A stretch of DNA of 64,000 nucleotides, taken from IMG/VR virus record IMGVR_UViG_3300023276_000007, positions 1-64,000 of that record. One strand, written 5' to 3'. The notes under the pieces were generated by a model. That model was given only the letters and a program-made list of their open reading frames with translations, was not told the DNA's origin and did no database searches. Positions 11,197 to 45,715 of this stretch are shown here, piece by piece; position 1 is the first letter of the stretch; every line of letters starts with the position of its first letter. Source of the DNA: a virus. Made by a program: the position numbers and the translations under genes.

Positions 11197-13148
11197 AGAC
11201 GCCACAGTTACTAACTATTATTAAAGAAGCAGCCAAGGGTGACTCCTATGGTTGCGCTATGCTGTATTTCGAGGATGCAGACTCTAACTGCCTTAAGAAC
11301 TGGAACGCCGACATGAAGGCCATAGAGATCCCAGACGAGGATCTTCATGAGTACGGTAGAGAGGATGAACCTCACGTCACGGTACTATACGGATTACACA
11401 CAGGCTCTGCAGCTAAGGTTAAGAAGGCCCTTGCAGATAATGAGTGTACTGTAATGACGGTAAGAATGGGTGGACTGGATATCTTTGAGAACGACGACTT
11501 CGATGTTCTGATCCGTAAGGTAGAAAGGGTGGACCATCTAACCGAGGTGCGTAAGCATCTTATCGACAAGTTGGAAACAACAATCACTTTTAAAGACTAT
11601 AAGCCACACGCTACCGTTGCCTACCTTAAGAAGGGTAAGGGGAAGGAATACCTCAAGAAGTATAAAGACCTCGACTGGAAACTTAACGGTGAATTCGACT
11701 GTGACACAATAGATTTCTCTAATAAAGGAAAGACGCATACTAAGATAAACTTGACAGCTGTCAAGGCTGCCTCAATAGATGTAGATATCGAAGTAGGCGA
11801 TACAGTCCTTACCGGAAGATTTAAGAACAAGAAGACTGTAGTTAAAGAGATAGGCACTGACAGCAATGGCCAGCCGACGATTAACGGCATGAAGCTATTA
11901 GCTATGCGTATTGATAAGTTAATGCCTGCTAAGGCCGAGAAGAAAGCCGCCGATCTCCCAGGAAGATGTGACCGATGCGACGAACCTATAAAGGAAGCAG
12001 ATACAACTAAAGAGACCTTGTGCGCTCACTGCATAGGCCTTAAGAAGAAAGCCGGTGAAGGCTCTGCTCCTAACTATAAGCAAGCAACAGACCCAGCAAC
12101 TAAGTGTTCTAGCTGCTCACATGCTGAGGCCGGTTACTGCACTCTGTATGACTTCGCGTTCAATGCCAAATTTACCTGTGATAGCTTTGCTACTGATATG
12201 CAAGCCTTGACAGACGAGGGAGTTCCTCAAGTAGTTGAGAAGTACCTCCCCAAAACAGCACAGTACGTAAACCCGTACTTAAAAGATATAGAGATGGAAC
12301 ATTTAAAGAAGCCACTGCCAGATAGCCTTACTAAGCTAGTAGCTTGGCTTGTTAGCCGTAACGACGCTAACCGCAAGATAAACACTTACTATGGAGCCAT
12401 GGATAACATGAAACAAGCACAGGTATTACCTACCGGCCCTGCTACCAACAATACCCTACCAGGGTCTGCTACTGCACCTACTGGTGGGATAGTAGCGCCT
12501 ATGAATAACAGCGTACCTAGTATGAACGCTGGCGGAGCGGGTGTTGTGTCCCCGAACCTTAAGAACAGTTTCCAGAACATTGCTCAGACAGGAGTACGTA
12601 ACTCAGCAGCGGCAAAATCTAAAGGACAACTGCCTGACGCCCCTAAAGCTAAAGAACAGCTCTCTGAAGTTGCGGCAGACCTTAACCAATCTAATACAGA
12701 CACCCCGGAGTCAGAAGCTGGTACGCCCGCATCTTCCGGAGTGGCGGACAATGGTAGCCTTTCTTATGGCGTCAACCCACAGGCATCGGCATACGGCGTT
12801 AATGCAGCACCGACCACTGATACTAAGGCGGCCTCTTTTGCACACGGATTCGTAGCAAAGTGTCACGAGTATGGAGTAGACCCAGAAGAGTTACTCAATA
12901 AGTCTGCACAGTTAGAGTTTGGTAAGCCAGGTACTCCAGGGTACCAACACTCCTACCAACCACAAGGCGCATTTGAGATGGAGCCGGGTAAGTCAGTATG
13001 GTCACCGCAGCAAAGGAAAGATATACAGAGGGGGCAGTTTACTAGCGCAGCGCTAAAGAACGTCGCCCGATCTATGTTCAGTAATCAATACGGTAATATA
13101 CCAACCTCACAAACTCAGATGATTAACTTTACAGAAGGCAAGGCATAA
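11193..13148 (+). CDS. multidomain protein: 2H phosphoesterase (T4 gp57B/Acb1-like) plus small Cys-rich modules separated by K-x-A motifs
   Basis: Two HxT motifs (EPHVTVLYG, KPHATVAY); CxxC modules; internal GF leader copy near the C-terminus. Confidence 0.75.
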   Translation: MKTPQLLTIIKEAAKGDSYGCAMLYFEDADSNCLKNWNADMKAIEIPDEDLHEYGREDEPHVTVLYGLHTGSAAKVKKALADNECTVMTVRMGGLDIFENDDFDVLIRKVERVDHLTEVRKHLIDKLETTITFKDYKPHATVAYLKKGKGKEYLKKYKDLDWKLNGEFDCDTIDFSNKGKTHTKINLTAVKAASIDVDIEVGDTVLTGRFKNKKTVVKEIGTDSNGQPTINGMKLLAMRIDKLMPAKAEKKAADLPGRCDRCDEPIKEADTTKETLCAHCIGLKKKAGEGSAPNYKQATDPATKCSSCSHAEAGYCTLYDFAFNAKFTCDSFATDMQALTDEGVPQVVEKYLPKTAQYVNPYLKDIEMEHLKKPLPDSLTKLVAWLVSRNDANRKINTYYGAMDNMKQAQVLPTGPATNNTLPGSATAPTGGIVAPMNNSVPSMNAGGAGVVSPNLKNSFQNIAQTGVRNSAAAKSKGQLPDAPKAKEQLSEVAADLNQSNTDTPESEAGTPASSGVADNGSLSYGVNPQASAYGVNAAPTTDTKAASFAHGFVAKCHEYGVDPEELLNKSAQLEFGKPGTPGYQHSYQPQGAFEMEPGKSVWSPQQRKDIQRGQFTSAALKNVARSMFSNQYGNIPTSQTQMINFTEGKA

Positions 13149-13207
13149 GAAAAGGAACTGGAAAGTATAGCCTATCGCTATATATTAATACTTTTAGGAA
13201 GGTACTC

Positions 13208-14391: not shown

Positions 14392-14400
14392 GAGTATAAA

Positions 14401-14754: not shown

Positions 14755-14756
14755 TT

Positions 14757-15182: not shown

Positions 15183-15183
15183 T

Positions 15184-17099: not shown

Positions 17100-17341
17100 T
17101 GCATAACGAAGCATTTCAACAAGGCTTTCACGATAGATGTGCTGAGTACGGCATTGATGGCGAAGCACTCAAGCAAGCTGCGGAAGGTCCTTTTCTAAGT
17201 GATGCAGAGAACAAAGCAGATAAAAATCGTAAAAAAGGTAAACCAGCCGTTACCACTAGCGCTAAAGACACTGAAGAAACTCCAAAGTCTTTGGCTAAGA
17301 AGATCAAAGACGGCTACAGTGTTGGCACTGTAAACAAGTAA
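17099..17341 (+). CDS. small Lys-rich protein with GF leader
   Basis: AFQQGFHDRCAEYGIDGEALKQA followed by a basic tail. Confidence 0.65.
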   Translation: MHNEAFQQGFHDRCAEYGIDGEALKQAAEGPFLSDAENKADKNRKKGKPAVTTSAKDTEETPKSLAKKIKDGYSVGTVNK

Positions 17342-17377
17342 AGCTTTAAAGAAGCCGGTAAACACTAAGAGGAAACT

Positions 17378-26388: not shown

Positions 26389-28701
26389 ATGAATTTCAAT
26401 GACTTACTTGTCGATGAAAGTGTGCTGACAAAGCTCGCAGTCGAAGGACCTAACCAACAGCAGGTCGAGCAAGATTTCGGAAAAATGGCTTATGCCTTCT
26501 TGAAGGATAGAGCACCTAGCCTCATTACACACCTAATTGGGTTTGAAGTAGTTGAGGCAGAACCAGATGGGTCCCGAGCTGTAGGCCTTTTCGGTTTCGA
26601 CGTAGGTGGTAGATACTTCTATGTCCCAACGTTCTTCCTAAGTAATCAGATTAAAGGTATGGATCTTCTTTATGATAAAGAAGCCGACATGTTCTACCCT
26701 TTAAGAGAGAACTGGATCAACCACATTCTTAATAAGCAGACTATACAGTTAGGCGATGCCGCCCAACCAGGAGTCTCCCAGGATTTCGATACACCAGATT
26801 TTACAGCCATTTCAGATCCCCCAGTCGGCGGATCAACAAAACTTTCAGCTCATCAAGTAGGCCACGACCTAGCGGCTACTTGGAATCAGATACAGAAGAC
26901 TGTCGCTGACTCACTTGAGAATGATGACGCCTTTAAGTCAGCGTATGCAAATGCTGTACTTACTATGAAAGGTGAGCCTAACATTAAAGAAGCCAGTTTC
27001 CTTACCGACTTTATCGAGCATAAAGGCGGACCTAAGATGGCAGCAGCAGTTGCGCAGTCTTTACAGGACATCAACTTCATCAAAGCAGCAGCTGTGTTCT
27101 ATGAGCCTAGCGAACTATTGATTAATGACTTCAGTGAGGCACTAGCCCCTAAAGAAGCTAAGTCTGTTAAAATCGTTACAAGAGAACTTGTCGACGATTA
27201 CAGTAAGGACATGGATGATGATGACCGTACTCGTATCGTTGAAGACGGATTCACTCTTACAGATAACCGTGAAAAGGCTAATAAGTCAGACGTTTATACT
27301 GTTGACTATGCTAGCTCGCTACAGAATCCAGATTACTCTGGTGAATGTGACGTAGTTCTTTCAAGTGGTATCTGTACCCCTTGTTATGTAGCAACTACAC
27401 CTTTTGGCGCAACTAGCCCAGGACAAGTCTTAGTTATCAGTAAAGATACTAAGAGATTCTTCACAGCACATGAAAGAGTTGTTTTCGTAAGAGACGCCCT
27501 TAATGAGTCCGACAAGACTAATGCCCCTCTTTATAAAGGAGCTGTTGAGGTTGGAGACATGGAGCTTGATGCTACTTATGTACTTGTTAAGGAAAATGGA
27601 CAAACGTCTATACCTTTCAAGACTAGATCAATTACCTCAGAAGACGGCGATGATGTCCGTATCAGAGTTAACTGGATTAACAACTTAGACTTCGGTGACG
27701 ACTACGAGGGTACTGACTACCCAAGAGCGCACATTGCAGAAGCTAACCCTAGCTGCCTACCTTCTTACGGGGAAAGTTCTATTATACCTGTAGATCGTAT
27801 TGGTGGTTTAAGAGTATCCTCTAGAAATATGATTGTGCCTACTGAAACCTGGAAAGCTGTTAAGCTTACAGAGAAGAGACACAGCTCTATGGAAGGTAAG
27901 GTATTCTCACCAGGAACTTATTCAGAAGTTAAAGAAAATTTACTTAAGATGGCTTATCATGACGTTGTCATTGAGTCTATGGGTGAAGGCGTTGGTTACA
28001 ACATCAGTATTGACGGTTCTGTAGTCCAAGACAACCTAGATGCTAAAGAAGCGTCATTAGCGATTGCTAGAGACCTTGGTATCGATGCAGGTGAAACGCT
28101 AGCTATCATGGACGAGGTCAAACAGGCCGGAGCTACTAATAGACTAGTTAAGTTTGCTCAGCAGGTTTCTATGCCGGAAGTACCTCCACAGTATGTCGGT
28201 TACGACGCACACACTGGAGTACCTATCCATCCAGCACAGATTGACAGAGTAGAAGGCTCAACAGAACCATATACACCACCATACGTAGGACCTGGCGACA
28301 GTATCTACATGGGCGGTGAAGGTGAAAGACAGCAGCAGTCTGCACAAGGACAAGGCGGACCTAGCCCTACTGAATTATCACAGCAGGCAGCAGCAGCTGG
28401 CCAGCAACAAGTATTTGACCATAGTGTCGTCGGCGGTCTAGCGCAGACTTATGATGTAAGCTTTGCAGTCGACAGTTACGTCCCGGACCTTCTTAAGTGT
28501 CTAGACCGTATCGGTAGAATCTTATTCTTATTCTACTGGAAGAACGTCGACTTCGCAGAACGCTATGGCGATCAAGACCTTACCGCAATGGAAGATCAGC
28601 TACGAGGTGTCTTTAAGTCACTTGGCGATCTATCATTGAAGCTTAAGCAAAAGACTATTGACGCCGAAGGTACGGAGTTCGTAGACGGAGGAGCTATCTA
28701 A
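26389..28701 (+). CDS. large putative internal head protein
   Basis: 770 aa, GGAG RBS; TKLA, KEA, KAA, KMA, KFA motifs; position in the head cluster. Confidence 0.65.
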   Translation: MNFNDLLVDESVLTKLAVEGPNQQQVEQDFGKMAYAFLKDRAPSLITHLIGFEVVEAEPDGSRAVGLFGFDVGGRYFYVPTFFLSNQIKGMDLLYDKEADMFYPLRENWINHILNKQTIQLGDAAQPGVSQDFDTPDFTAISDPPVGGSTKLSAHQVGHDLAATWNQIQKTVADSLENDDAFKSAYANAVLTMKGEPNIKEASFLTDFIEHKGGPKMAAAVAQSLQDINFIKAAAVFYEPSELLINDFSEALAPKEAKSVKIVTRELVDDYSKDMDDDDRTRIVEDGFTLTDNREKANKSDVYTVDYASSLQNPDYSGECDVVLSSGICTPCYVATTPFGATSPGQVLVISKDTKRFFTAHERVVFVRDALNESDKTNAPLYKGAVEVGDMELDATYVLVKENGQTSIPFKTRSITSEDGDDVRIRVNWINNLDFGDDYEGTDYPRAHIAEANPSCLPSYGESSIIPVDRIGGLRVSSRNMIVPTETWKAVKLTEKRHSSMEGKVFSPGTYSEVKENLLKMAYHDVVIESMGEGVGYNISIDGSVVQDNLDAKEASLAIARDLGIDAGETLAIMDEVKQAGATNRLVKFAQQVSMPEVPPQYVGYDAHTGVPIHPAQIDRVEGSTEPYTPPYVGPGDSIYMGGEGERQQQSAQGQGGPSPTELSQQAAAAGQQQVFDHSVVGGLAQTYDVSFAVDSYVPDLLKCLDRIGRILFLFYWKNVDFAERYGDQDLTAMEDQLRGVFKSLGDLSLKLKQKTIDAEGTEFVDGGAI

Positions 28702-29741
28702 TGGATGCAGTACTCGTTAAAGTAGCTTTCATGCGAGGGGTCTTTGAAGACTCCTGTCGTATACCAACTAGAGCAGAGCTCAATTATGTGTCAGGCTTTT
28801 ATGATAAGCTTGCCTCTGTAACTATGCCTTTTGAAAAAACGGCAGCTGAGTCTATTGACTTTAACGAGTACCTCGACACCGCCTATGCAGTTATGTGTAA
28901 AGAGGCAGGAGCCTGGGACTGGTTTAAGCGTAAAGCTAAGGCAGTAGGTAATACTGTTTATAATGCAGCAGCCGACGCAGGTGATGCTATCGATAAAGGC
29001 TTTAATAAGGTTCATGACTACCTCGGTGATAAAATACACCAAACAGGCGTGTTTGACGGTGGCGGTAACAAACTTACTAACGCCCTAGCAGACTACGGTA
29101 ACAAAGGTTACCAAGGTATATTAGGGGATACTCTAAAAACCATGGGAACCGTGGCTACTTTAGGTTATGGTGGAGCAGCATTAGGCGCTGGTCGTGGTCT
29201 GGCAGCAGCTAGAGGACTTGCACCTAGAGTTTTATCATCAGCTAGAGGCCTTGCCCCTAGAGCCTTATCAGGTATGAAGAACATCGCTAGCGGTGCGAAG
29301 AATCTTGTAGGTAGAGGCCTGAGTAAGATGAAGAATTGGTGGAGAGGCGGTAAAGGTGGTCAAGGAGCTACTAATGCTGCTGATAAGCTTTCTAAGATGC
29401 AGCAGGCGAAGAAGTGGGGCGGTAGAGCTCTGAACACTTATTTCGTAGGCGATGCGGTGAATTCTCTTGGTAAGGGTATGGGTTGGTGGGGCGGAGCACC
29501 AGGACAACAACAGCCAGGACAACAACAAGCTATGGCAGGTGCCGCAGGACAAGGTCCAGCAGCACAAGGTCAGATTCAACAAGGACCTCGCGGTGTAGGA
29601 ATGTCAGGTGCAGCAGGCGCCGGTGGTATGGGGCTGGGTTCAGCACCTACAGCACCTAAAAATGACGCACGCTACAGTGGGTTCTTAAACAAGTTTAAAC
29701 TTGGCGCAGGTGCCGGCGGTAAAGGGAGCTTCTTCAAATGA
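28701..29741 (+). CDS. Gly/Lys-rich amphipathic putative virion protein
   Basis: KVA/KLA/KTA/KEA-rich N-terminus, then GAWDWFKRKAKAVG; tandem ARGLAPR repeat. Confidence 0.65.
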   Translation: MDAVLVKVAFMRGVFEDSCRIPTRAELNYVSGFYDKLASVTMPFEKTAAESIDFNEYLDTAYAVMCKEAGAWDWFKRKAKAVGNTVYNAAADAGDAIDKGFNKVHDYLGDKIHQTGVFDGGGNKLTNALADYGNKGYQGILGDTLKTMGTVATLGYGGAALGAGRGLAAARGLAPRVLSSARGLAPRALSGMKNIASGAKNLVGRGLSKMKNWWRGGKGGQGATNAADKLSKMQQAKKWGGRALNTYFVGDAVNSLGKGMGWWGGAPGQQQPGQQQAMAGAAGQGPAAQGQIQQGPRGVGMSGAAGAGGMGLGSAPTAPKNDARYSGFLNKFKLGAGAGGKGSFFK

Positions 29742-30166
29742 CAGACGAGAAGTACGTAGAGTATCACAAACAGGGTTTTATGGATAAGTGTGCTAGCGCA
29801 GGCCTTACTCAGGAACAGTCGGATGAACTCTATAAACAAGCAAATCCGTTTTTGACAATAGGCAAAGGGCTCTGGAACGCAGGTAAGAAGTTTCTTGGAA
29901 GCGGCGCTAGTAAAGGTAAGGACGCCCTTAAGTGGGTAGGTAAGAATAAAGGCAAGACAGCCCTAAACACGGCAATGTACGGACCACTTGCTTACCAAGG
30001 CATAAACATGGCAGGTAATGCTATGGGCCTCTGGGGTGGCGACGGACAACCACAACAACAACCTGGAGCCGCAGGACCACAAGGACCTCAACTACCACAA
30101 CGGGGCTACGGACAAGCTAAATTAAATGTTAGAGGAATGGGTGGCATAACGCCATACCTGACGTAA
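29738..30166 (+). CDS. GF-leader amphipathic protein (partial paralogue of 28701)
   Basis: YHKQGFMDKCASAGL...YKQA then NPFLTIGKGLWNAGKKFLG; shares the KW.G..ALNT...MG.WGG..Q-rich segment with 28701. Confidence 0.7.
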   Translation: MTDEKYVEYHKQGFMDKCASAGLTQEQSDELYKQANPFLTIGKGLWNAGKKFLGSGASKGKDALKWVGKNKGKTALNTAMYGPLAYQGINMAGNAMGLWGGDGQPQQQPGAAGPQGPQLPQRGYGQAKLNVRGMGGITPYLT

Positions 30167-30194
30167 CTTATTTATTACGATAGGAGTAAGATAA

Positions 30195-31577
30195 ATGTTT
30201 AAAGACCGATTAATGGAAGCCCTAGATAGCGCAGTCAGCCACTTCAATGGTGGTCTTGATGACAACGCTTCTGTTGTGAAAGCAGCTTCCGACTATGATT
30301 TCAATAAGGATCAGACGCTAAGACTTATGGAGACGTATAACACTGCGAAGACTATAAGTTTCCTTAAGACAGCCGACGATAGGAGCCAAAACTTTTCTAC
30401 AGCCAAGCCAGACGATGTACTTCCTGCGTTATTCGATGCAGATGAAATACTTAAGTCAGCGGCTCCAGTAGAACACCATGACTATTCTTTCTATACAGAA
30501 GCACCAGAACATCAGAAGGTGGCCGGAGACTATTCTATTCTCGATAAGGCTGCTGCGGAGTTCAGCGACGACAGCCTTGAAAGCGTAAGCCACTATGCCC
30601 TACATAGAATAGGCGAGCTTAAGAAGACTGCAGGTTTCTGTGAGGACCAAAAAATTATGACTGGGGAAGTTTATGATAGAACTCTCCAAAAGATCGCACA
30701 GCACCTTAAACCAGATTACCTTGAAGAGTCTCTATTCCCACAAGCGGAAGTAGCCCTACACGTTATGTATAAGGATGCCGGAGATCACATAGCAGAAGAG
30801 CTTATGGCTTACCTACCTGCTGATACTAAGAGAGCGAACGCCCGTGATAAGGCAGTACGCATTTCTATCTTCGACGTTGAGCACCCAAGTCTTAATGGAC
30901 TACTTAAGGATGCACATGACTGTAGAACTCAATGGAGTAAGTTCGCTTCTCTAGAGCAGCACTACAATACCGAGTCTAAATCTTATGAAAAAGGATTTAA
31001 GAGAGCTATGCACCTCGAAACCGAAGACACAGACGCCTTCGATGAGATTAACGATATTTTTACTGAAGACTTCGCATCTGGGCTGAAGTCTGCACAAGAA
31101 GCCTCAGCCTCAAGTAGCACACTAGGTAACGTCACAGGCGACACCGCAGAAGCAGCTACTGCCGGATTAGGGTTAGCCCAGAAAGGCCTAGCTACTGTAG
31201 CTGACAAAGCAACCAGTATGGTTCCCATGCCAAAGGTTGACGTAGCAGGTGCACTAGCTAATCCGAAAGCACGAGAAGCTAAAGGCACTGCTAACAAGAT
31301 GAAGAATCTACAGCGCCAACTTATACTTGAAGAACTTATGGTGACAGATCCAGTACTTAAGGGTGAGAATCCTGACTCTGTTTCTAGAGCCTACCAAACA
31401 CTTATACAAATAGCCCCAGACGTTTCTCTTAATAGAGAAGTTGCGAGGTCTATCTTACGACAGTCTGTACAGTCTGTGGCAGTAAGTCCTTACGATGCTA
31501 AGTCTTGGTCTGACCTTGAAAATGAAATGCGTAAGAGACTGAAGCAGGGCGCGTCGGTACAGGAGACAGCAAGATGA
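30195..31577 (+). CDS. putative internal head protein rich in K-x-A
   Basis: 460 aa, at least 12 K-x-A motifs by hand count. Confidence 0.65.
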   Translation: MFKDRLMEALDSAVSHFNGGLDDNASVVKAASDYDFNKDQTLRLMETYNTAKTISFLKTADDRSQNFSTAKPDDVLPALFDADEILKSAAPVEHHDYSFYTEAPEHQKVAGDYSILDKAAAEFSDDSLESVSHYALHRIGELKKTAGFCEDQKIMTGEVYDRTLQKIAQHLKPDYLEESLFPQAEVALHVMYKDAGDHIAEELMAYLPADTKRANARDKAVRISIFDVEHPSLNGLLKDAHDCRTQWSKFASLEQHYNTESKSYEKGFKRAMHLETEDTDAFDEINDIFTEDFASGLKSAQEASASSSTLGNVTGDTAEAATAGLGLAQKGLATVADKATSMVPMPKVDVAGALANPKAREAKGTANKMKNLQRQLILEELMVTDPVLKGENPDSVSRAYQTLIQIAPDVSLNREVARSILRQSVQSVAVSPYDAKSWSDLENEMRKRLKQGASVQETAR

Positions 31578-32596: not shown

Positions 32597-32598
32597 TA

Positions 32599-33402
32599 AT
32601 GGATAAAGAAGCACAGATAGTAGAAGCCCTACAAGGCGCAGGCTCTAGTATTATGGACTCCCTAAAGAATGCCCCTGACAAGGTATCCGAATTCTGGGGC
32701 GGCTTATCAGATGCTCAAAAATCTACCGTACTAAATTCTTTAGCTGGAGCTGCCGCAGGTGGACTTGGTTCTGGCTTATTAGGTGGTGGGCTAGGAGACT
32801 CAGCAGTCGCAGCACTACTAGGTGGTGGCGGAGCTGCTGGACTTACAATGGGATACAATTCACTATTCGGTGATTCTAGACTTCCATCTGAAGTTGCAAA
32901 TAGTCCTGGACTCATTGACAGATCCCTAAGCACAGTAGGCAACCCTGTACTAGGTAATCCTGGTACTTCTATCGGAGGTGCTCTTGGTGCCTGGATAGCA
33001 GGTAAGCATGGCGGACTACCTTTCTCTGATAAAGGAACTGTAGAAGGATTCGAGCAATGGGCTAATGAAGCCAAAAATCGTAAAGTCCCTACAAAAGCAA
33101 ACCTCGGACTAGGTAAAGACATTGATGCTAAAAAACTTTTAGGTAAAATTAGAGATGCTGCAGGAACAGGCAGTGCTTTAGATCCTGAAGCAAGAGGTTT
33201 TAAAAACCTTGCCAAAAGAATTCTTTCCGGAGACTTCGGTGCGGTACTAGATCCTCAGTTAGGTACTAGAGGTATACTAGAGCAAGCCACACAAGGTACA
33301 GGAGCTTCTAGGTTCATGCCTAACAGAGCTGCTTGGATGGCGTTACCAGCAGGCTTAGCTGCCGGTGCTATGGCAGATAAATATGTACAGGGAGAGTTAT
33401 AA
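32599..33402 (+). CDS. glycine-zipper putative virion membrane protein
   Basis: MDKEA N-terminus; several GxxxG hydrophobic helices. Confidence 0.65.
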   Translation: MDKEAQIVEALQGAGSSIMDSLKNAPDKVSEFWGGLSDAQKSTVLNSLAGAAAGGLGSGLLGGGLGDSAVAALLGGGGAAGLTMGYNSLFGDSRLPSEVANSPGLIDRSLSTVGNPVLGNPGTSIGGALGAWIAGKHGGLPFSDKGTVEGFEQWANEAKNRKVPTKANLGLGKDIDAKKLLGKIRDAAGTGSALDPEARGFKNLAKRILSGDFGAVLDPQLGTRGILEQATQGTGASRFMPNRAAWMALPAGLAAGAMADKYVQGEL

Positions 33403-34847
33403 TGAGCGGGATGACCAAACTGATCTATAACGACAGTATGATAGACAGTAACTCTGAGTTCAGTATCCGTATCGTAGAAGATACCTCTACCCTAACAAAA
33501 CAAGCTTCTGTCTTTTCTAAAGTAGCAAAAGACATCCAGCCAGATAAAGATCATGTAGGCATACACGTCATAGCACTTGGTGAGTCCGAGCGTTATGGTT
33601 TCAATAGAAATGGTGATGCCTTCACTAAGAAAGCCTGTATCGAATCTCACCCTACCTTTGTTAAGCATGGTCATGTATATGAGCATCACCAGAACAAAGA
33701 CCCCGAGAAGAAGCTAGGGGACATCGTTAAGTCTGCCTACAATGAAGATATGGGTCGTATAGAACTATTCATACATGCACATAAAGACAAGGCCGAGACG
33801 CACCTGAACAAGCTGGCATCTAGTGGTGAAGTACCAGTGTCTATGGCATGTAGAGTAAAGGAAGACCGCTGCTCCGTATGTGACCAGCTAAGATCTTCTA
33901 GCAAAGACCCTCGCCAGTGTTCTCATATAGCTATGAGTCTAGGTAAGACTGCAGAAGACGGTCAGGTCATTGGTACATATAATGACCACCCTAAATTTTT
34001 TGATATTAGTTTCGTCTATCGTCCAGCAGACAGAATTGCTTGGAACCTTAATAAGACAGCCAGCGCCGCAGGTGTTGATAGTGTTAAACTAGCAGAGGAC
34101 GCAGGTTTGTGGACTCCGCCAGAACTTATTATGGAAGACGGCGCACCTTTTGATAAGCTTGATATCTTGAAGAAGATGGCAAGCTTTGAAGATAAGTACC
34201 GCAGCATTGCACAGAGAGGACCTCAAGACCCTTGGGAAACTCAAATGTGGGAGCTACGTAAAGCCGCTTATGCAACATCAGTACCTGATGCTTATATAAG
34301 TGACCTGCGTAGGTACGAGCCCGAAGATGTACTTTCCAATTTGGCGAGGAACAAGGTTATACTTGATCCGGAATCTTATTGCAAGTACGCTATGGGTATA
34401 GACCTAGGCCAATTGCGTCCGCATTTGGGTGAGGTTAAGAAGGCCTGTGATGGACTCTTTACTAGATTGTTAAAAGAAGGTAAGGCGTATGAGGTTTGTA
34501 GTGACAGTTACTATGACTTTATAACACCATCGAAGTATGTAATACCGCAAGCAAGTACACTGGACGCTAAGGTGGCAATGGTTAAAAGTGCGTCGTCTTT
34601 CTCAGATGACTACGTATTTAAACGTGCTGTTGATGCAACCGCTTCAGGTTTGAATCCACAACTTAGTTGTAAAAGTGTACCATCAAGTACTATTTCTCAG
34701 GTTGCAAAAGTTGTGTCGGAGAAGTATGCTAGTTATAAACTGGCGAGTATTAACGCGATGCGGTATTTCCACCCATCTGAAAGTGTGGACCGCCAATTAG
34801 CCATATTGGCTGTTCAAAGCATGTTTAAGCAAGAATCAGGAGACTAG
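33402..34847 (+). CDS. prohead (maturation) serine protease with C-terminal extension
   Basis: NRNGDAF, VYEHH (His), VSMAC (Ser), FFDISFVYRPAD resemble the HK97/assemblin-type fold; immediately upstream of scaffold and capsid genes. Confidence 0.75.
   Translation: MSGMTKLIYNDSMIDSNSEFSIRIVEDTSTLTKQASVFSKVAKDIQPDKDHVGIHVIALGESERYGFNRNGDAFTKKACIESHPTFVKHGHVYEHHQNKDPEKKLGDIVKSAYNEDMGRIELFIHAHKDKAETHLNKLASSGEVPVSMACRVKEDRCSVCDQLRSSSKDPRQCSHIAMSLGKTAEDGQVIGTYNDHPKFFDISFVYRPADRIAWNLNKTASAAGVDSVKLAEDAGLWTPPELIMEDGAPFDKLDILKKMASFEDKYRSIAQRGPQDPWETQMWELRKAAYATSVPDAYISDLRRYEPEDVLSNLARNKVILDPESYCKYAMGIDLGQLRPHLGEVKKACDGLFTRLLKEGKAYEVCSDSYYDFITPSKYVIPQASTLDAKVAMVKSASSFSDDYVFKRAVDATASGLNPQLSCKSVPSSTISQVAKVVSEKYASYKLASINAMRYFHPSESVDRQLAILAVQSMFKQESGD
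34702..34730 (+). promoter_or_regulatory. candidate internal sigma70-like promoter for the scaffold-capsid operon
   Basis: TTGCAA-N17-TATGCT inside the 3' end of the protease gene. Confidence 0.35.
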
Positions 34848-34852
34848 GATAA

Positions 34853-36160
34853 ATGTCCACTTCAAAAACAATGAATGAAATACTCGCAGACACTAAGCAA
34901 TTTCTTAGCATCAAAGAAGCGAGTTTTGGTAAACAGGCCAAGGAAGAAGCTTTGGATAACCCCAACAGCATCCCTGGATCTGCCCATGATAAGCCTGTAG
35001 ACGATGGTGCATCTGCGCCAGACAAAGAAGTCCAACAGGAATTACCCCCGAACACTGCAAATAGCAACGCTGGTGCTACTGAAGCTGAAAAGCTTGAGTC
35101 AGGCCATGCTACAGATGCTACACAAGCTGTTCAGGATGTAGCCAAGAAACCTATGGTCAGTAGCGACTCAAACGCTAAAGAAGCTTCAGCTGGTGTTAAT
35201 GCACATGCTCAAGACCTTATTGACCTTATCGGTAACTTCAACAGCGAGAAGACTGCTGCGAGATCAGCCGTTGACGTTTTGACAGACGAGAAGTGTTCCA
35301 AGTGTGATAAGGAAGACTGCGACTGTGAAAAAGAAGACGATTCTGATGACTCCAAGGAAGCTTCGCAGGAAGAGTCCAAGGAAGCTACTGTTGGTGGTGA
35401 AATCGAACTTAGCAGAGATGTACTCGCTAAGATCGCTTGTACAATCCTTTCTACTGAAGAAGGTGTAAATTTCACAGAAACAATTTTACAAAAAGAAGCT
35501 GGAGCTCAGGCTGCTAGAGACACTATGGAGTTTCTAAACAAGCAAGCTGAAGACTCTGAAAAACAAGCTGCATATGATGCCGGACAGGAACATGCTGACC
35601 AGTTGATTAATGAAGCTGTTAAACAAGCTGAAGATGCTAGATTTGAGCAAGCTTATGAAGCAGGTCGTAATGACGCGATTAAGTTGGCACAAGCTACTTC
35701 TCCAGACGGCTCTATCGATTATAAAGCTCTCGGCGCTACTGTTGCTGCCGAAGCTGTTAAAAGAGCACAAGCTGAATTGATGGGTATGGACCCAGCAGCT
35801 ATGGACTCTGGTATCGGCGCTGACGAAGCTTTAGCTGGCATGGCTGGCGAAGGTGAAGAAGCAGGTGACGATATCGCTCCTGAGGAACTTGAAGCGGCAT
35901 TAGCCATGATGGTTCAGAGTGGAGAACTCTCGGAAGAAGAAGTTGCAGCTATTATGTCGCAGATCGGAGCCTCTGAAGGCGCTGAAGAAGCGGGTGAAGC
36001 TGTAGGCGCTATCGAGGGAGCTGCTCCAGAAGGTTTAGGCGAACTAGAAGGACTTGAGGGACTTGAAGAAGCTCCTGCAGGTATGGAAGTCGCTGCATCC
36101 GCTAGTGTTGAGAAGAGCTTTCTAAACGCGCTAGCTACGGTTAGAGCCAACAGCAAGTAA
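34853..36160 (+). CDS. capsid scaffolding protein
   Basis: Acidic, Ala/Glu-rich helical protein between protease and capsid genes; 13 K-x-A motifs. Confidence 0.7.
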   Translation: MSTSKTMNEILADTKQFLSIKEASFGKQAKEEALDNPNSIPGSAHDKPVDDGASAPDKEVQQELPPNTANSNAGATEAEKLESGHATDATQAVQDVAKKPMVSSDSNAKEASAGVNAHAQDLIDLIGNFNSEKTAARSAVDVLTDEKCSKCDKEDCDCEKEDDSDDSKEASQEESKEATVGGEIELSRDVLAKIACTILSTEEGVNFTETILQKEAGAQAARDTMEFLNKQAEDSEKQAAYDAGQEHADQLINEAVKQAEDARFEQAYEAGRNDAIKLAQATSPDGSIDYKALGATVAAEAVKRAQAELMGMDPAAMDSGIGADEALAGMAGEGEEAGDDIAPEELEAALAMMVQSGELSEEEVAAIMSQIGASEGAEEAGEAVGAIEGAAPEGLGELEGLEGLEEAPAGMEVAASASVEKSFLNALATVRANSK

Positions 36161-36170
36161 GGAGCTTACC

Positions 36171-36572
36171 ATGAGCAATGATAAAAATTTAGAAGAGATC
36201 CTCGAAAAGAGCGCTGCTTATGTCGAAGAGAGTCAGAAAGAGATTAGTAATCTCAACGCTGCACTTTCTAAGCAAGCTAGCGAAAAGCTAACAGAAAAGA
36301 AAGCTTTTGATCTCCAGGCCCAACGCACCGCTGCCATCTTAGCAGATCGCGGCGTTATTGAAGCAACTAAAGTTAACGACTTTGTCGACAAGCTAGCCTC
36401 CTCTCCGGTAGAGGCCTTGAAGACACTTGAAAAGTTAGCTAAACTTTTAGGTACTTCTTCGTTGGGAGGACCCTCTGCGGTAAAGGAGGCTTCGGCCTCT
36501 ACGGACACATGTCCATTTGTAGCAGAATTATTTCCAGAGCTGGGTAACTCCCGTTCTGGATTGGTAGATTAA
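36171..36572 (+). CDS. small scaffold/core-like coiled-coil protein
   Basis: KSA, KQA, KLA, KEA motifs; AAGGAG RBS. Confidence 0.6.
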   Translation: MSNDKNLEEILEKSAAYVEESQKEISNLNAALSKQASEKLTEKKAFDLQAQRTAAILADRGVIEATKVNDFVDKLASSPVEALKTLEKLAKLLGTSSLGGPSAVKEASASTDTCPFVAELFPELGNSRSGLVD

Positions 36573-36595
36573 CATATTAAATTGAGGTAATTAAC

Positions 36596-37114
36596 ATGGC
36601 TAAAGGTCATTTTAACGTACTAAAAGGGGCTTATCCTTCTTTAGTGCAATTGGATAAAACCCTCAAGGTTAATGACGCTGTCACTAACCTTGTTAGAGGT
36701 AATTCCCTTCGAGTTGATACATCTGATAACACTTGGCTTAAGACTGCAGATGATGCAGCGTCTAAGGGTGCCGCTGGTACTCCTGGACCAATCATCTATT
36801 TTGCACTCCAAGACCAAGATCAAACAGATGTTGAGATGGCAGGCGCATTGACTGCACTTTCTTGCACAATGCCTATGGAAGTTGAAACGGATCAGTATAA
36901 CGGAACTCCTGCTTTAGGCGCACTACTTGTTGGTGGACTTGACGGTAAAGTTCAGGCTCATGCTGATGGAGAGACTGCGTGTGGCGTAGTTACTAAAGCT
37001 GAGTACCGTCGTTTTATCAACGATAAGACGGTCAGCGGAACTAGCACTAAAGGTGGATTCGGTATGGTATTAGGTTTTGCCACTATCTACTCACCTGACA
37101 TCGACGGAGTATAA
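36596..37114 (+). CDS. putative capsid decoration/cement protein
   Basis: 172-aa beta-rich protein directly upstream of the major capsid gene; GAGGT RBS. Confidence 0.55.
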   Translation: MAKGHFNVLKGAYPSLVQLDKTLKVNDAVTNLVRGNSLRVDTSDNTWLKTADDAASKGAAGTPGPIIYFALQDQDQTDVEMAGALTALSCTMPMEVETDQYNGTPALGALLVGGLDGKVQAHADGETACGVVTKAEYRRFINDKTVSGTSTKGGFGMVLGFATIYSPDIDGV

Positions 37115-37116
37115 TC

Positions 37117-38172
37117 ATGAGCGATAACATTCCAGTTTCAGTAATGAACAACAAAATTATGGAAGCGTTTAACGAAGGTAGCGATACCTCAATCAAGAAG
37201 GCACAAAGTGCCGCGACTGGTTTTACACGCATTCAGGTCCGTGAAGATTCTTTTACTTATAAGATCCTTCCTCCGGAAAAAGCTACAGATGACATTCTTA
37301 ATGTCTCTCTTGATAATGACATGCCTTCAGTTATTTGGGAAATCGAGCCAGATTCTCCAGGAGCTAAATGGGTACCACTTCAGTCTATTCCTGAAGGTGA
37401 GTATATCCAGGGTCGTCGTTACTTGATTCCTATGGCACGTATCGTTACTCCTAAGTTTACTAAGGACATCGACGAATTGCGTACCTACAGAATGGACCTT
37501 CGTAAAGTCCTTACTGACAACGCTATCAAAGACGGTCTCGCTGAGATTGACGGTAAGTGGATCGAAACCTGTGACGGTATCGTAATCGACCTTATGTGGT
37601 TGAACACTGCTACTGGCGCAACGACTGCTACAGTCTATGACCCAGATGCTGACACTTATACTGTTGCTAACCCTTACGCTGGTGACGGTGTTGCGGTTCA
37701 GACTCTTACAGGTAAAGTTCAGTACCGCAGATTCTCTGCTGGTCTTGACAGATCTGATATCGCCGAAGCTAAGAAGATGATGCCTTCTGGTTCACTCTTC
37801 CCAGGTTTCGAAGATAAGTTCCGTCTACGTAACTACCTAATGCTTATGAACGATGTTACTGCTCAGGACTTCCTGAAGTATCGTCGTGAAGACGCCGGTG
37901 GTGATCTATCTCAAGAATTGTTCGAGAACGGACTTACTCTTGAAAAGATCATGGGTATGAAGACCATTTACACTATTAAGGGCGGTATCGTTCCTGATGG
38001 TGTGGTTTATTTCTTCGCAGCTCCAGAGTTCCTTGGTAAGTTTTTCTATCTTACTGATTGGACTATGTACATGAAGAAAGAAGCTTACTTCATTGAATGC
38101 TTCGCTTACTGGCTTGGTGGATTCGCCATCGGTAACGTAGCTGCTGTCTGTCGTGCTGACTTTGTTGACTAA
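37117..38172 (+). CDS. major capsid protein (HK97 fold)
   Basis: 351 aa, strongly biased codon usage, followed by a strong terminator; position after protease/scaffold; IKKA near residue 28. Confidence 0.8.
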   Translation: MSDNIPVSVMNNKIMEAFNEGSDTSIKKAQSAATGFTRIQVREDSFTYKILPPEKATDDILNVSLDNDMPSVIWEIEPDSPGAKWVPLQSIPEGEYIQGRRYLIPMARIVTPKFTKDIDELRTYRMDLRKVLTDNAIKDGLAEIDGKWIETCDGIVIDLMWLNTATGATTATVYDPDADTYTVANPYAGDGVAVQTLTGKVQYRRFSAGLDRSDIAEAKKMMPSGSLFPGFEDKFRLRNYLMLMNDVTAQDFLKYRREDAGGDLSQELFENGLTLEKIMGMKTIYTIKGGIVPDGVVYFFAAPEFLGKFFYLTDWTMYMKKEAYFIECFAYWLGGFAIGNVAAVCRADFVD

Positions 38173-41476: not shown

Positions 41477-44400
41477 GTGACTTATGTAAAGCCACAAGTT
41501 AAAGTATTTCAAGAGTTTCAAGCCGCTCCGGAAGCTGTCGTTCAGAACCTGAACGCGTTCGTATTCGGACCGCACTATCAACTCTTTAGATACGCAGAAT
41601 CCTCTGAGAAAGCTTTAGTTAGCTTAGGGGATTATGATAAAGATAACGACACAGATTACTTGTGGCCTAATCAGCCGGCATTGTCTGTCGTTGACCAATC
41701 TTTCACCAAACTTTACGCAGACGATGCGCTTTTAAAGTATATCAGCTTTGCTGAGTCAGCGGTTAACCCGTTGGTTCTTACAAGTGCTAGTGTACGGAAT
41801 AAGCTTAGAGCTGCTCCAAGAATAGGTGCTACTACCTCTGCGGGTAACATTGACGTCACAGTCAGTGGTGTTCACAATGGTGGCGCAAATCTTCCGGAGA
41901 GCTATTACGTCTATCCTGCAGAAAGTTTCATTATCGGCTCAGCAGCCGGTGAATTAAATTATATTACGACTGACGGACTTAAAGGATCTATTGCAGTTCC
42001 TGCAGATGCTACGTTAGCTAACAAGGTTGTAGAAGGCCCGGACGGAGTCGCTTTAGACTTTGACCTTACTGGATTGGCAGTTAACGCTCCAAGACAGATT
42101 GTCGTGGCAGGTGCTTCATCAAGCTTCACACTTACACAGTTGAAGAGCAGAATACCTTCACACATTGCAGATGCAGAAGCAGCCGACGCTCTTAGAGTAA
42201 CGGTAGCAGATGCAGCACTCTCGGTTACATATAACCCAGGAACAAGCAATGAACTCTCTGTCAGCTTCGACATTGGCGGCGGTGGTGACTCAGTCGCTGC
42301 GGCTAGAGCTGCTGTTGTTGCAGTTACAGACATTCTCGAAGATTGGGAAGTAAGTGATATCTCTGGCGACGGACTCGATGCAGTTACTACTGTAGAAGAC
42401 CAAGACGCTGCAGACCTTGTTGCTGCCACTACTAACATCTTAGATGATTATGCGTTCTACACAGTATTCGCTAACTCAATTATCTTTAAGACTGAGAATG
42501 GGTTCAACCGTTCAGCTGGTCTTTTCAAAGACGTCGAAGTCGGTGACAGAATACGTCACGTCGTAACTCCAGTCAGCACAGGTGTCCCTGAAGAAGTCTT
42601 CAGCACAGTTGTTGGTTTCGAGCCAGACATCCTTAACGCTACAGTTTCTGACCAAACACCTGCCGACGACAACGCAGAGAACCAACTAAGCACAGATTTA
42701 AGTGCTGGTGATTCTTCCGTCCTAGCTGGTGGTGGTGATAATCAGAACACTGGACTTCTTGTAGGCGGTAACGCAGCAATCTATCTTCTCGATCAGACTG
42801 CTACTTACGATGACGCTTTCGGAGATCAATCACAAGGTGTAAGCGATCTAGACATCACAGTTACGATCGTAGCAGGCGGAGTTGCCACTAGTGGTAATGT
42901 CACTGCTAACGTCTCTAATGCTTCAGGAACGTACAACCGTACAGGTGTTCCAATAGTTGCAGATGCTAACTACCCTGATGGTAGTATCTATATCGGTAGC
43001 AACATGGTTCTCGCCTTTGACGCTACAGGTGATACTTCTGGATCAGGCGGTGGACCTGACAGAGAATTCAAAGCTGGTGACAGTTATGAAGTATCTGGAG
43101 TCCTTACCCCAGTTAACGCTGTTAACAATCTTATTGTCGAGGGTTCTTACTCTGGTCAGCAAGATACTACTTACAGACTAGAAGTTGTTCGTGGCGGACT
43201 TTTCGATAGAACAGTTGTTGCTCAGCCAGGTGTTAACTACTTCGGTAGAGGCCATAACGCTGTCTACGCTAATACAGTTATTACTTCTGCAGGTCAGCCT
43301 GCTGATACAGAAACCCTCACATTAAATGATGGGTTTAACAGTGTTGTCTTCGAGTTCGATAACAATGCTACTGTTTCTGGTACTAACGTTGCTGTAGTTA
43401 TCGGTGGAACTGCCGCAGACACACTAACTAACTTACTAGCAGCTATCCAAGGAAGTTCTCTTGATGCTCAGGCAATCGAGACTGTCTCTGGTACTGAGAT
43501 CACAGTTACGTCTAACAACCTAGCTAACGACCTCACTTCTGCAGGAACACCAACTAACTACTCTACAGTAGATACCGCACTATCAACTCCGACAGCCTCT
43601 ACGGTTATCGCAGCAGTAGTCGACATCTCTCAGTGGACTGGTGGTGATCTTGATGACGAGTATCGTCTAGTTGTTACTAAAGCAGGTGGTAACCTTGTTT
43701 CGACTGAGTTCGCTCTTGAGTCTAACGCTGGTGATAACCAGAACGGTATTTCCTTCCCAGCCTTCGCTACATCTGTAGACGTCGGTATCAAAGGACTTGC
43801 AATCACTCTTACTGATGGTGGCGCTGTTAACCCAGCCTTCGCTGTAGGTGAGACTTTCGTTCTAGACTTGAGACTCTCAAGACCTAAGCTTAAGATTACA
43901 GACTCTGCAGGTATCGATCAGCAGACTAACGTTGTAGTTGCAGATGGTGACATCATTAACGTCGGACTTAACGGCGTAACTGTTGAATTCCCTTCTAACA
44001 CCAACTCTAACGGTGGAATCGACATTAACGGCGGACTAAGCTTAGGCGACGTCTGGACTATTGAAGCTACTGCAAAAGCAAACGGACCTCTTAAGACTCT
44101 TGTTCTTAGTGAGCCTGTTTCTGATAACGTCGCAGCTGCAATCGACTCAGCAGGAGTTCCGGTACCAATACCTGACCTTTTCGCTATCGACCTGTTCTTG
44201 TTTAGCAACTCAGTCACTATCCCAAGTGAGCAGCGTGATCCTAACGTAGCCGCTGGTTTCTTTAACTGGCAAGGTATTGCAGCAAGCTTGACATCTAACT
44301 CTGGAATAACACTCCAGGATAGCAGATGGGTAGACCCAAGTGACAGTTCTATGCCTTACCTTGAATTATGGCAAGGTTCACTTTATGTAGAGTACAGAGC

Positions 44401-45715
44401 ATTACTCAGAGAGTATACTAGCTCAATCTTCTCTATATCTAACATTGACGATGTGGTCAGTTCACTCGGTCCAATTGTTCCAGACAACCCACTAGCTCTA
44501 GGTGTTTACAAAGCACTACAGAACAGTGCAGATGCTACCGTGTATTTCATGGGAGTTGAATCTGATGATGTTGCTGGATACTCTAAGGTCCTAAGTAAAG
44601 CTACTCTTTCTGATAAGCTTTACAGTCTCGTACCTCTTACGTTCGACGATACAATCCACGGATTGGTTGATGCGCATGTTGACGAGATGTCCACAGAAAA
44701 TCGTAAGAGATGGAGAATAGCATTCCTCGCAGCTGAGACCAGCTTCGAAAACGCAATCCTTTGGGGTGGTAACCATCCTACTAATGGAGTGTGGAACGCT
44801 ACTATCACTGACGATACACGAGCTGTCGGTACTCAATACACAAGAGTTGAGTTCACAGAGTTCGCAAACCTACTAGGTACTGTTGCAGTTGGCGATGAAA
44901 TTCGTTTCAACTTCGATATCGATGCTTGGGGTAACGAGACTCACACGTCAGCTGTCGTAGCAGAATTGGAAAGTAATCAGGTTCTTTACCTCGATGCCGC
45001 CCAGCCAGCCGCGATCACAACTGCAGTGAAGATGGAAATTTACCATCCTCTAAGCACAAGTGAGCAGGCTTCTAAACTTGCAGAAACTTCCGCAGCTTAC
45101 GCCGACAGAAGAATGTATGCAGTTTACCCAGACGTACTGTTTAACGAAGGCGTTGCAGAACCAGGATACTTCGCAGCAGCGGGTGTAGCCGGGTTAGCAA
45201 GCTCAGTAGTTCCTCAGCAAGGGTTAACAAACACTGAAGTAGCAGGGTTCGATGACGTTCCAGCTATCTACAGCATCTTTAGTGAAGATGACCTTAACAC
45301 TATGGCCGAGGGTGGTACATTGATCGTAGCTCAAGAGCTACCAGGTGGTCCGGTATTTATCCGTCACCAGATCTCTACCAACCAACGTAGCGGTGTTCTT
45401 GCTAAGACTGAATTGTCAATGGTTAAAAACTTTGACTCCATCAGTTACTACTTCGCTAACAAACTGTCCCCTTACATTGGTAAGTATAACGTAACTCCAG
45501 CACTTGTTGACCACCTCCGCACAGAGATTCTGTCTGGTATCAACTTCTTGAGTTCATTTACAGGTGTAGGTCTTCTTAGCCCGCAGGTCATTAAGGAAAA
45601 CAGTGAGATAGTTCTCATTCAGCAGCACCCAACGCTCGCTGATACGATTATCGCCAATGTGAACCTGAACTTACCAGCGCCGCTTAACGTAATCGAACTA
45701 CACTTAGTAGTATAA
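41477..45715 (+). CDS. contractile tail sheath protein with large inserted domains
   Basis: N-terminal YVKPQVKVFQEF and C-terminal sheath core (AAGVAGL, LNTMAEGG, ELSMVKNFD, YIGKYN, PAPLNVIELHLVV); AAGGAG RBS, GTG start. Confidence 0.88.
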   Translation: MTYVKPQVKVFQEFQAAPEAVVQNLNAFVFGPHYQLFRYAESSEKALVSLGDYDKDNDTDYLWPNQPALSVVDQSFTKLYADDALLKYISFAESAVNPLVLTSASVRNKLRAAPRIGATTSAGNIDVTVSGVHNGGANLPESYYVYPAESFIIGSAAGELNYITTDGLKGSIAVPADATLANKVVEGPDGVALDFDLTGLAVNAPRQIVVAGASSSFTLTQLKSRIPSHIADAEAADALRVTVADAALSVTYNPGTSNELSVSFDIGGGGDSVAAARAAVVAVTDILEDWEVSDISGDGLDAVTTVEDQDAADLVAATTNILDDYAFYTVFANSIIFKTENGFNRSAGLFKDVEVGDRIRHVVTPVSTGVPEEVFSTVVGFEPDILNATVSDQTPADDNAENQLSTDLSAGDSSVLAGGGDNQNTGLLVGGNAAIYLLDQTATYDDAFGDQSQGVSDLDITVTIVAGGVATSGNVTANVSNASGTYNRTGVPIVADANYPDGSIYIGSNMVLAFDATGDTSGSGGGPDREFKAGDSYEVSGVLTPVNAVNNLIVEGSYSGQQDTTYRLEVVRGGLFDRTVVAQPGVNYFGRGHNAVYANTVITSAGQPADTETLTLNDGFNSVVFEFDNNATVSGTNVAVVIGGTAADTLTNLLAAIQGSSLDAQAIETVSGTEITVTSNNLANDLTSAGTPTNYSTVDTALSTPTASTVIAAVVDISQWTGGDLDDEYRLVVTKAGGNLVSTEFALESNAGDNQNGISFPAFATSVDVGIKGLAITLTDGGAVNPAFAVGETFVLDLRLSRPKLKITDSAGIDQQTNVVVADGDIINVGLNGVTVEFPSNTNSNGGIDINGGLSLGDVWTIEATAKANGPLKTLVLSEPVSDNVAAAIDSAGVPVPIPDLFAIDLFLFSNSVTIPSEQRDPNVAAGFFNWQGIAASLTSNSGITLQDSRWVDPSDSSMPYLELWQGSLYVEYRALLREYTSSIFSISNIDDVVSSLGPIVPDNPLALGVYKALQNSADATVYFMGVESDDVAGYSKVLSKATLSDKLYSLVPLTFDDTIHGLVDAHVDEMSTENRKRWRIAFLAAETSFENAILWGGNHPTNGVWNATITDDTRAVGTQYTRVEFTEFANLLGTVAVGDEIRFNFDIDAWGNETHTSAVVAELESNQVLYLDAAQPAAITTAVKMEIYHPLSTSEQASKLAETSAAYADRRMYAVYPDVLFNEGVAEPGYFAAAGVAGLASSVVPQQGLTNTEVAGFDDVPAIYSIFSEDDLNTMAEGGTLIVAQELPGGPVFIRHQISTNQRSGVLAKTELSMVKNFDSISYYFANKLSPYIGKYNVTPALVDHLRTEILSGINFLSSFTGVGLLSPQVIKENSEIVLIQQHPTLADTIIANVNLNLPAPLNVIELHLVV

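Follow-up and report, generated by a model that had tools for sequence, protein, structure and literature searches.

Open reading frame (ORF) 33402, in a 64,000-nucleotide stretch of viral DNA (positions 1 to 64,000 of IMG/VR virus record IMGVR_UViG_3300023276_000007, hereafter the window), probably encodes a prohead serine protease of the gp21/assemblin fold, which, to judge from sequence, would cut its substrates after alanine with lysine at P3, that is, at the end of the three-residue motif K-x-A. The window is included in a 106,765-bp contig from a large, very divergent myophage. The argument starts from the head-assembly proteins of this phage, in which K-x-A enrichment is confirmed to lie far above chance after correction for composition. 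The genes concerned are the following (aa, amino acids; arrows mark predicted bonds; expected counts are from shuffled proteins):

26389..28701, plus strand: K-x-A-rich protein, 770 aa; 13 sites against 3.5 expected (z 5.6)
29738..30166, plus strand: 142-aa protein with a leader ending GFMDKCA↓S; 4 K-x-A against 1.35 (z 2.55)
30195..31577, plus strand: K-x-A-rich head protein, 460 aa; 13 sites against 4.25 (z 4.8)
33402..34847, plus strand: predicted prohead protease precursor, 481 aa (gp21/assemblin fold model, K-x-A enrichment, >490 homologues); 17 K-x-A against 3.6 (z 7.9)
34853..36160, plus strand: scaffold-like protein, 435 aa, Ala/Glu-rich, assigned by gene position and composition; 13 of 28 lysines in K-x-A against 5.1 (z 4.0)
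36171..36572, plus strand: head protein, 133 aa; 6 K-x-A against 1.7 (z 3.7)
37117..38172, plus strand: HK97-fold major capsid protein, 351 aa, identified by Foldseek and by homology to phage G gp27 and Arash gp226
41477..45715, plus strand: tail sheath, 1412 aa, used as negative control; its C-terminal domain matches the phrog_279 tail sheath

A first-pass annotation of the window had proposed K-x-A as the recognition code of the head protease on the basis of hand counts. These counts were reproduced for the scaffold-like protein (13 of 28 lysines), for ORF 30195 (at least 12 sites claimed, 13 counted) and for the sheath, which has a single K-x-A among 31 lysines (3.45 expected). The nine sites reported in ORF 15184 are real too, but their enrichment is not significant (5.9 expected, z 1.5). 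When K-x-A counts were compared with 2,000 shuffles of each protein across 58 plausible translated ORFs, the enrichment survived in ORFs 33402, 26389, 30195, 34853 and 36171, with the z values listed above; ORFs 26389, 36171 and 29738 are enriched beyond those the annotation had named.

The motif also emerges when no motif is chosen in advance. When all 1,200 residue pairs with gaps of 0 to 2 were scanned without bias across 11 consecutive, unselected ORFs (26389-38172), K-x-A ranked first, with 78 occurrences against 30.1 expected (z 8.7); it ranked third when all 63 ORFs of the window were scanned. The signal is strict and directional. Taking together the six enriched head proteins (ORFs 26389, 29738, 30195, 33402, 34853 and 36171), K-x-A is present at 3.37 times expectation, against 0.97 for the reverse motif A-x-K, 0.92 for K-x-x-A and 0.76 for K-A. 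Motifs with another residue in place of K or A show no excess (R-x-A 0.83, K-x-G 0.51, K-x-S 0.14), the glutamate codes stay near expectation (L-x-E 1.13, I-x-E 1.39, A-x-E 1.13, S-x-E 1.11, G-x-E 0.81), and herpes-like V/L/I-x-A motifs are not enriched here (0.66-0.96). With A-x-K, K-x-x-A and K-A all near 1, helical periodicity is ruled out as the source of the signal, since neither it nor a mere richness in Ala and Lys would produce a pattern with this direction and strictness. A motif acting at the DNA level is likewise excluded because codon usage at K-x-A sites is the same as elsewhere. K-x-S is scarce in these six proteins (2 observed, 13.9 expected), as if lysines lying two residues ahead of a small residue had almost all been fixed as K-x-A.

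As a positive control, we ran the same scan on the T4 proteins gp67, gp68, gp21 and gp22, where I-x-E came first and L-x-E third. The statistic thus recovers the established gp21 code, which indicates that it reads out the specificity of a prohead protease.

To follow the motif across relatives, we collected 80 IMG/VR loci solely through their homologue of the gp21-fold protease, and took all ORFs, unselected, in flanks of up to 10 kb on each side. K-x-A ranks first of 1,200 in 42 of these loci, among the top three in 56 and among the top ten in 66, and loci whose protease is only 30-40% identical to that of the window are among those with the signal. By gene order, the same ORFs are enriched: the ~780-aa and ~460-aa proteins (the latter corresponding to ORF 30195), the protease, the scaffold-like protein and the ~130-aa protein. 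Orthologues of ORF 26389 are enriched in 23 loci. No K-x-A enrichment was found in the relatives' capsid, tail tube and sheath genes.

In orthologue alignments, the K and A of the motif are better conserved than lysines and alanines elsewhere in these proteins. Lysine conservation in ORF 36171, for example, is 0.60 within K-x-A and 0.09 elsewhere (0.39 and 0.18 in another case), while the middle residue is conserved below average. At least half of the sites of each orthologue nevertheless sit where the window protein has none, with density still at 2-4 times expectation; orthologues of ORF 34853 carry 10-18 K-x-A, half or more of them at new positions. Conservation of K and A, combined with site turnover at a steady density, points to a short linear motif under selection and not to an inherited structure.

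We pooled 1,931 unique site contexts into a sequence logo, in which information is confined to positions P5 to P1', a span that matches the subsite footprint of a protease in size. F, L and M are favoured at P5 (2.3-3.1 times) and E at P4 (2.7 times), whereas P, G and D are disfavoured at P2. Directly after the alanine, at the presumptive P1', S reaches 3.5 times, E 2.1 times and A 1.5 times expectation, while I, P and L are excluded. The preferred extended site is therefore [F/L/M]-[E]-K-x-A↓[S/E/A].

The gene for the candidate protease sits in a head module, followed by the scaffold-like gene, small proteins and the HK97-fold capsid gene, an order kept in relatives. It has more than 490 metagenomic homologues. 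An alignment of 44 sequences (homologues down to 40% identity) was used to build an AlphaFold2 (AF2) model with a predicted local distance difference test (pLDDT) score of 85. The precursor consists of an N-terminal leader (residues 1-35), a core with the gp21/assemblin fold (about 36-220) and a C-terminal domain (221-481), the 260 residues of which form a confident helical domain holding 11 further K-x-A. Residues 1-207 match T4 gp21 (5jbl) with Z 11.5 over 149 aligned residues and a root-mean-square deviation of 3.1 Å (VIA-align); the next structural matches are the varicella-zoster virus protease (1vzv, Z 6.2) and the human cytomegalovirus protease (8j3s, Z 4.5). Foldseek also places gp21 chains in the top three positions. 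As modelled, ORF 33402 has the fold of T4 gp21 and the herpes assemblins.

Four short elements, three in the protease and one in the capsid protein, are central to the proposed activity:

33498..33506, plus strand: K33-Q-A35, predicted N-terminal autoprocessing site LTKQA↓S (invariance, disordered linker)
33840..33842, plus strand: S147 in V-S-M-A-C, candidate catalytic serine (conservation)
34053..34061, plus strand: K218-T-A220, predicted release site at the C-terminal end of the core, LNKTA↓S (invariance, disordered linker)
37195..37203, plus strand: K27-K-A29 of the capsid protein, SIKKA↓QS, predicted propeptide cut (conserved position)

The first-pass annotation had pictured the protease domain as bracketed by TKQA-S and NKTA-S, and both motifs do fall on either side of the core. 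K33 and A35 are invariant in 44 of 44 homologues with a variable residue between them, and P1' is S or A in 39; K218 and A220 are equally invariant (44/44), with S at P1' in 30. The only low-confidence stretches of the AF2 model, residues 11-36 and 209-223, hold exactly these two sites. Invariant sites in the two linkers that flank the core are the arrangement expected for autoprocessing that frees the core. S147 and M148 are invariant in the 44 homologues, and S147 is the candidate nucleophile. Five histidines share this invariance (H55, H83, H96, H125 and H175) and are candidates for the catalytic His, although H175 could be part of a Cys3-His metal cluster. This cluster, an invariant CxxC...CxH formed by C157, C160, C173 and H175 just past the serine strand, is also found in phage G gp19 and resembles a zinc-ribbon insertion. 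The segment of T4 gp21 that can be aligned by sequence (residues 34-64) stops short of this region. Some homologues of ORF 33402 (P0062, P0068, P0069 and P0084) are longer, at 664-842 aa, and contain Hint or homing-endonuclease-associated domains (PF13403, PF05203), which are probably inteins in the prohead protease gene.

The capsid protein carries a site of its own. A Foldseek search with ORF 37117 gave 327 matches at E ≤ 1e-3, every one an HK97-type shell, and the protein is homologous to phage G gp27 (6wkk, E 8e-19). The IKKA seen at about residue 28 by the first-pass annotation is I-K-K-A at residues 26-29, and 40 of 47 orthologues have a K-x-A at the corresponding place near the N-terminus, again with a variable middle residue.

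N-terminal K-x-A is also frequent across the head/cargo region. The first 45 residues contain the motif in 21 of 36 ORFs located there, at 4.8-39.6 kb, against 3 of 38 in the tail region at 39.9-84 kb (Fisher P = 3.7e-6), typically in the form L-x-K-x-A↓small. The presence of such leaders on otherwise unrelated proteins parallels the capsid-targeting sequences of the T4 internal proteins; here too the leader ends at the motif, and the K-x-A leaders may be capsid-targeting leaders of the T4 type.

How far each protein would be degraded depends on which sites are used. If every site were cut, ORF 36171 would leave only fragments of 31 aa or less. The scaffold-like protein, with a helical-looking composition, ends in an acidic Gly/Ala/Glu-rich tail of about 130 aa (35771-36160) that has two lysines and no K-x-A; this tail is the sole large fragment that would be left. 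All 13 sites of ORF 30195 lie in residues 1-300, leaving the C-terminal 160 aa free of sites, and 8 of the 13 sites of ORF 26389 fall within its first 260 aa; the N-terminus of the latter resembles the Arash virion protein gp218. In the same all-sites case, cuts at K76, K110, K137 and K182 would also fall within the protease core. Such core-internal sites are either protected by the fold or reserved for a late self-destruction, as in T4.

The proposal of the first-pass annotation that K-x-A is the recognition code of the head protease is thus supported by directional enrichment, recurrence in relatives, invariant linker sites, the capsid site and the T4 control. We infer the rule 'cut after Ala, with Lys at P3' from analogy with the P3-x-P1 pattern of the T4, SPN3US and herpes enzymes, and from the P1'-like residues that follow the alanine. 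Under this rule, maturation might proceed as follows. In the assembled prohead, the protease would first free its own core by cutting A35↓S36 and A220↓S221. It would then chop its C-terminal helical domain and the ORF 34853 protein into short peptides, along with the small head protein ORF 36171, the first ~300 aa of ORF 30195 and the first ~260 aa of ORF 26389. About 29 residues would next be removed from the HK97-fold capsid protein, and finally the leaders ending in K-x-A would be trimmed from many cargo proteins encoded at ~4.8-39.5 kb.

A number of observations weigh against this scheme. At the sequence level, ORF 33402 hits no Pfam family at E ≤ 0.01, and an hhalign comparison of the 44-sequence profile with T4 gp21 is not significant (probability 0.2). 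Several sites do not look accessible: K76-A78 is an invariant K-x-A within the folded core, most K-x-A of the protease C-terminal domain lie in high-pLDDT structure, the capsid N-terminal site falls in a predicted helix and not in a disordered linker, and a further capsid site, at K321, is inside a strand. Mature capsid proteins do contain fewer K-x-A than expected (31 observed, 60.8 expected, 0.51 times), but we do not count this as specific evidence of site avoidance, since E-x-A (0.55), R-x-A (0.61) and K-x-S (0.40) are depleted too. In two distant branches, represented by Rhodococcus phage E3 and Erwinia phage Yoloswag, protease homologues are present with no K-x-A enrichment. Our literature search on family members found no experimental N-terminus or cleavage product, and in Salmonella phage Arash the K-x-A-rich protein gp223 was recovered with 100% tryptic coverage (PMC10585845), which means that uncut protein was present in the Arash preparation. 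The register of the bond, finally, is unreadable from sequence. Not every K-x-A need be cut, and sites in folded parts may stay intact or be cut only in late self-destruction. The internal proteome, which the first-pass annotation considered predictable from sequence, should therefore not be derived by counting every K-x-A as a cut.

A PDB sequence search with the ORF 33402 profile gave no match, and PHROGs gave weak matches, among them phrog_2774, 'unknown function'. Judged by sequence, the ORF 33402 family stands apart from T4 gp21 and is a separate sequence family.

Could the protease recognise K-x-A but cut in another register, after the lysine or one residue further downstream? The P5-P1' footprint fits P3-P3' around a K-x bond equally well, and there is a precedent in HK97, whose protease belongs to this fold superfamily and cleaves after Lys, K↓S being the maturation cut of the HK97 capsid protein. 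The characterised relatives that specify P3 and P1 (T4, SPN3US and herpes enzymes) cut right after the second of the two residues, however, and the residue following alanine in our sites behaves as a P1' would, with its excess of Ser and its exclusion of I, L and P. Arg does not substitute for Lys (R-x-A, 0.83 times), unlike at a trypsin-type P1. We consider a shifted register unlikely, though it is the strongest of the alternatives.

A lower probability still is given to K-x-A as a binding or targeting motif, used for docking during co-assembly with the shell, or for docking of the protease with a cut elsewhere or none. Such a role would suit the many sites in confidently folded helices, the likeness of the motif-bearing leaders to capsid-targeting sequences, and the full tryptic coverage of Arash gp223. 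It fits less well with 13-17 copies per protein, 5-45 residues apart and turning over quickly at constant density, for which disposal by fragmentation is a better account. The invariant sites placed exactly in the two disordered linkers around the protease core also speak against docking, as does the T4 cleavage code, which leaves the same statistical signature.

An enzyme other than ORF 33402 might read the motif, either a host protease or the following peptidase, which is encoded 23 kb upstream among putative cargo genes:

9559..10206, plus strand: papain-family C1 peptidase (Pfam Peptidase_C1, phrog_16701)

The peptidase was rejected on co-occurrence: no homologue was detected by tblastn in phages Arash, D69, D148, D181 and G, although each of them shows the K-x-A signal, so that the motif tracks the gp21-fold protease. 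The peptidase does have homologues in unrelated phages, namely Xanthomonas phage XacN1, jumbo phages of Stenotrophomonas, many actinophages and phages of Prevotella. Members of the family infect hosts as far apart as Salmonella and Vibrio on the one side and Bacillus-group bacteria on the other, which argues against a common host enzyme. Moreover, the motif was seen in loci gathered through the gp21-fold protease and brackets the core of that very protein. Another enzyme is thus very improbable.

Last, a functionless by-product of composition, helical periodicity or repeat ancestry is strongly disfavoured and receives next to no weight, even though the substrates are Ala/Lys/Glu-rich and mostly helical and orthologous proteins are non-independent samples, because per-protein shuffles remove composition, the reverse motif and neighbouring spacings stay at about 1, the enriched proteins are mutually dissimilar, at least half of the orthologue sites are not at inherited positions, and the codons used at the sites are ordinary.

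Cleavage by ORF 33402 after K-x-A thus remains the preferred reading, and it can be set beside what is seen in cultured phages. The closest cultured homologues of the protease, at 31-39% identity, and of the capsid protein belong to Salmonella phage Arash (OQ632216), the Vibrio phages D69, D148 and D181, and Bacillus phage G (protease gp19), with Arash gp222 the nearest to the protease. Arash gp220, gp223 and gp225 are K-x-A-enriched, and the Arash capsid protein gp226, a homologue of ORF 37117, displays LVKEA↓G at residues 24-28. The sites that flank phage G gp19 are LVKTA↓A, LEKVA↓S and LLKIA↓S. In the same phage the capsid protein, unlike that of the window, lacks K-x-A, and the chain deposited for it is near full-length (280 of 282 residues); an uncut chain without the motif fits the rule but does not prove it. 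The Arash paper gives a virion proteome from which protease and cleavage mapping are absent; the capsid protein was covered to 86.6%, a figure that would allow for the loss of 28 residues without being diagnostic, and the virion preparation was rather crude, with many non-structural enzymes (PMC10585845). No cleavage sites are reported in the multi-omics preprint on phage G either. As Arash, the Vibrio D69 group and phage G are all in culture, the prediction can be tested with existing material, possibly with existing Arash mass spectrometry data.

At a greater distance, in cluster C mycobacteriophages and E3, the protease domain begins a fusion protein of 900-1,370 aa, for instance:

Mycobacterium phage Bxz1 (L086), 11788-15900
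Rhodococcus phage E3 (L084), 14854-17541

Bxz1 gp95 is moderately enriched, with 19 K-x-A against 8.2 expected, and the capsid proteins of Bxz1 and E3 both have K-L-A near residue 45.

Other genes of the contig were considered as substrates or as landmarks:

ORF 3076: large terminase
7246..9243, plus strand: portal protein, homologue of Arash gp204 (tblastn E 6e-78)
11193..13148, plus strand: 651-aa polyprotein led by an Acb1-like 2H phosphoesterase (Pfam 2_5_RNA_ligase2, Acb1)

The portal protein is not enriched (2 K-x-A observed, 3.6 expected). ORF 11193 has 12 K-x-A against 6.6 expected (z 2.4), and its product is likely a further substrate of the protease, on the strength of these counts. 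Outside the window, a 348-aa ORF on the plus strand (contig positions 84566-85612) has 13 of its 26 lysines in K-x-A (3.1 expected, z 6.3), including canonical KEA↓S, KAA↓S and KTA↓S sites; far as it is from the head module, it likely encodes a head substrate or cargo. A 118-aa ORF on the minus strand (101554-101910) with 4 K-x-A against 0.7 expected (z 4.4) may be a chance ORF or a small substrate.

The motif is useful as a flag for scaffolds, propeptides and head cargo, drawn from sequence where Pfam and PHROGs recognise almost nothing. In this phage, it singles out ORFs 26389, 30195, 36171 and 11193, as well as the ORF at 84566-85612, 46 kb away. Pfam found nothing for 10 head ORFs, and the ESM Atlas was of no help with ORFs 26389 and 30195, for which its own models have low confidence (pLDDT 0.37 and 0.45).

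We are more hesitant about a wider proposal, namely that K-x-A↓S is a lineage-wide code in hundreds of mostly uncultured phages, serving both scaffold disposal and cleavable targeting leaders on more than 20 cargo proteins. The phages in question would range from contigs of ~6 to ~210 kb up to the 498-kb phage G, and their cargo would comprise polyproteins with anti-defence-like enzymes and perhaps pieces of a virion RNA polymerase. Should this hold, the proteins that a phage packages and injects could be read off directly even where its sequence is all that is known of it, and a phage protease would display the Ala↓Ser preference of herpesvirus assemblins.

How does ORF 33402 compare with known systems? 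What is known of prohead proteases with the gp21 fold comes chiefly from T4 and the phiKZ/SPN3US group, whose enzymes cleave after Glu. With T4 gp21, ORF 33402 has in common its fold and a gene position beside those for scaffold and capsid. In T4, a three-residue a-x-b motif is repeated many times over in the scaffold, the core proteins and the protease itself, as K-x-A is here, and the predicted N-terminal propeptide of the capsid protein is a further likeness. The code is different (L/I-x-E in T4), and so is the protein, which at 481 aa has an extra 260-aa helical C-terminal domain and the invariant Cys3-His cluster.

In the second group, SPN3US gp245 cleaves itself and cuts C-terminal to A-x-E, with many head and ejection proteins being processed (PMC10052503). 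Several copies of the motif are found within propeptides of phiKZ gp175 and SPN3US gp245 substrates, and the cut is made after the third residue (PMC10052503). Their motif, (S/A/G)-x-E or A-x-E, has Glu at P1, whereas the proposed site here has Ala at P1 and Lys at P3.

The herpesvirus assemblins come closer in some respects. Their release and maturation sites are of the type (V/L/I)-x-A↓S. They share with ORF 33402 the fold superfamily, their specificity agrees in part with that of the predicted sites, through Ala at the presumptive P1 and a favoured Ser at P1', and their core is joined to a C-terminal assembly domain by a cleavable A↓S linker, the counterpart of which here would be K218-T-A220↓S221. 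They differ in having a hydrophobic P3, where we find Lys with the hydrophobic preference at P5, and in using two or three sites when dozens are predicted per genome here; the structural match is also weaker than with T4 gp21.

Our search of the literature on phage capsid proteases found no published K-x-A code. If the prediction is true, the known specificity range of this fold is wider than thought and extends nearer to the herpesvirus enzymes, through a Lys-x-Ala rule so far undescribed for phage head proteases. Lys at P3 with Ala at P1 would then represent a new specificity variant of the known gp21/assemblin-fold system, in a large and mostly uncultured family.

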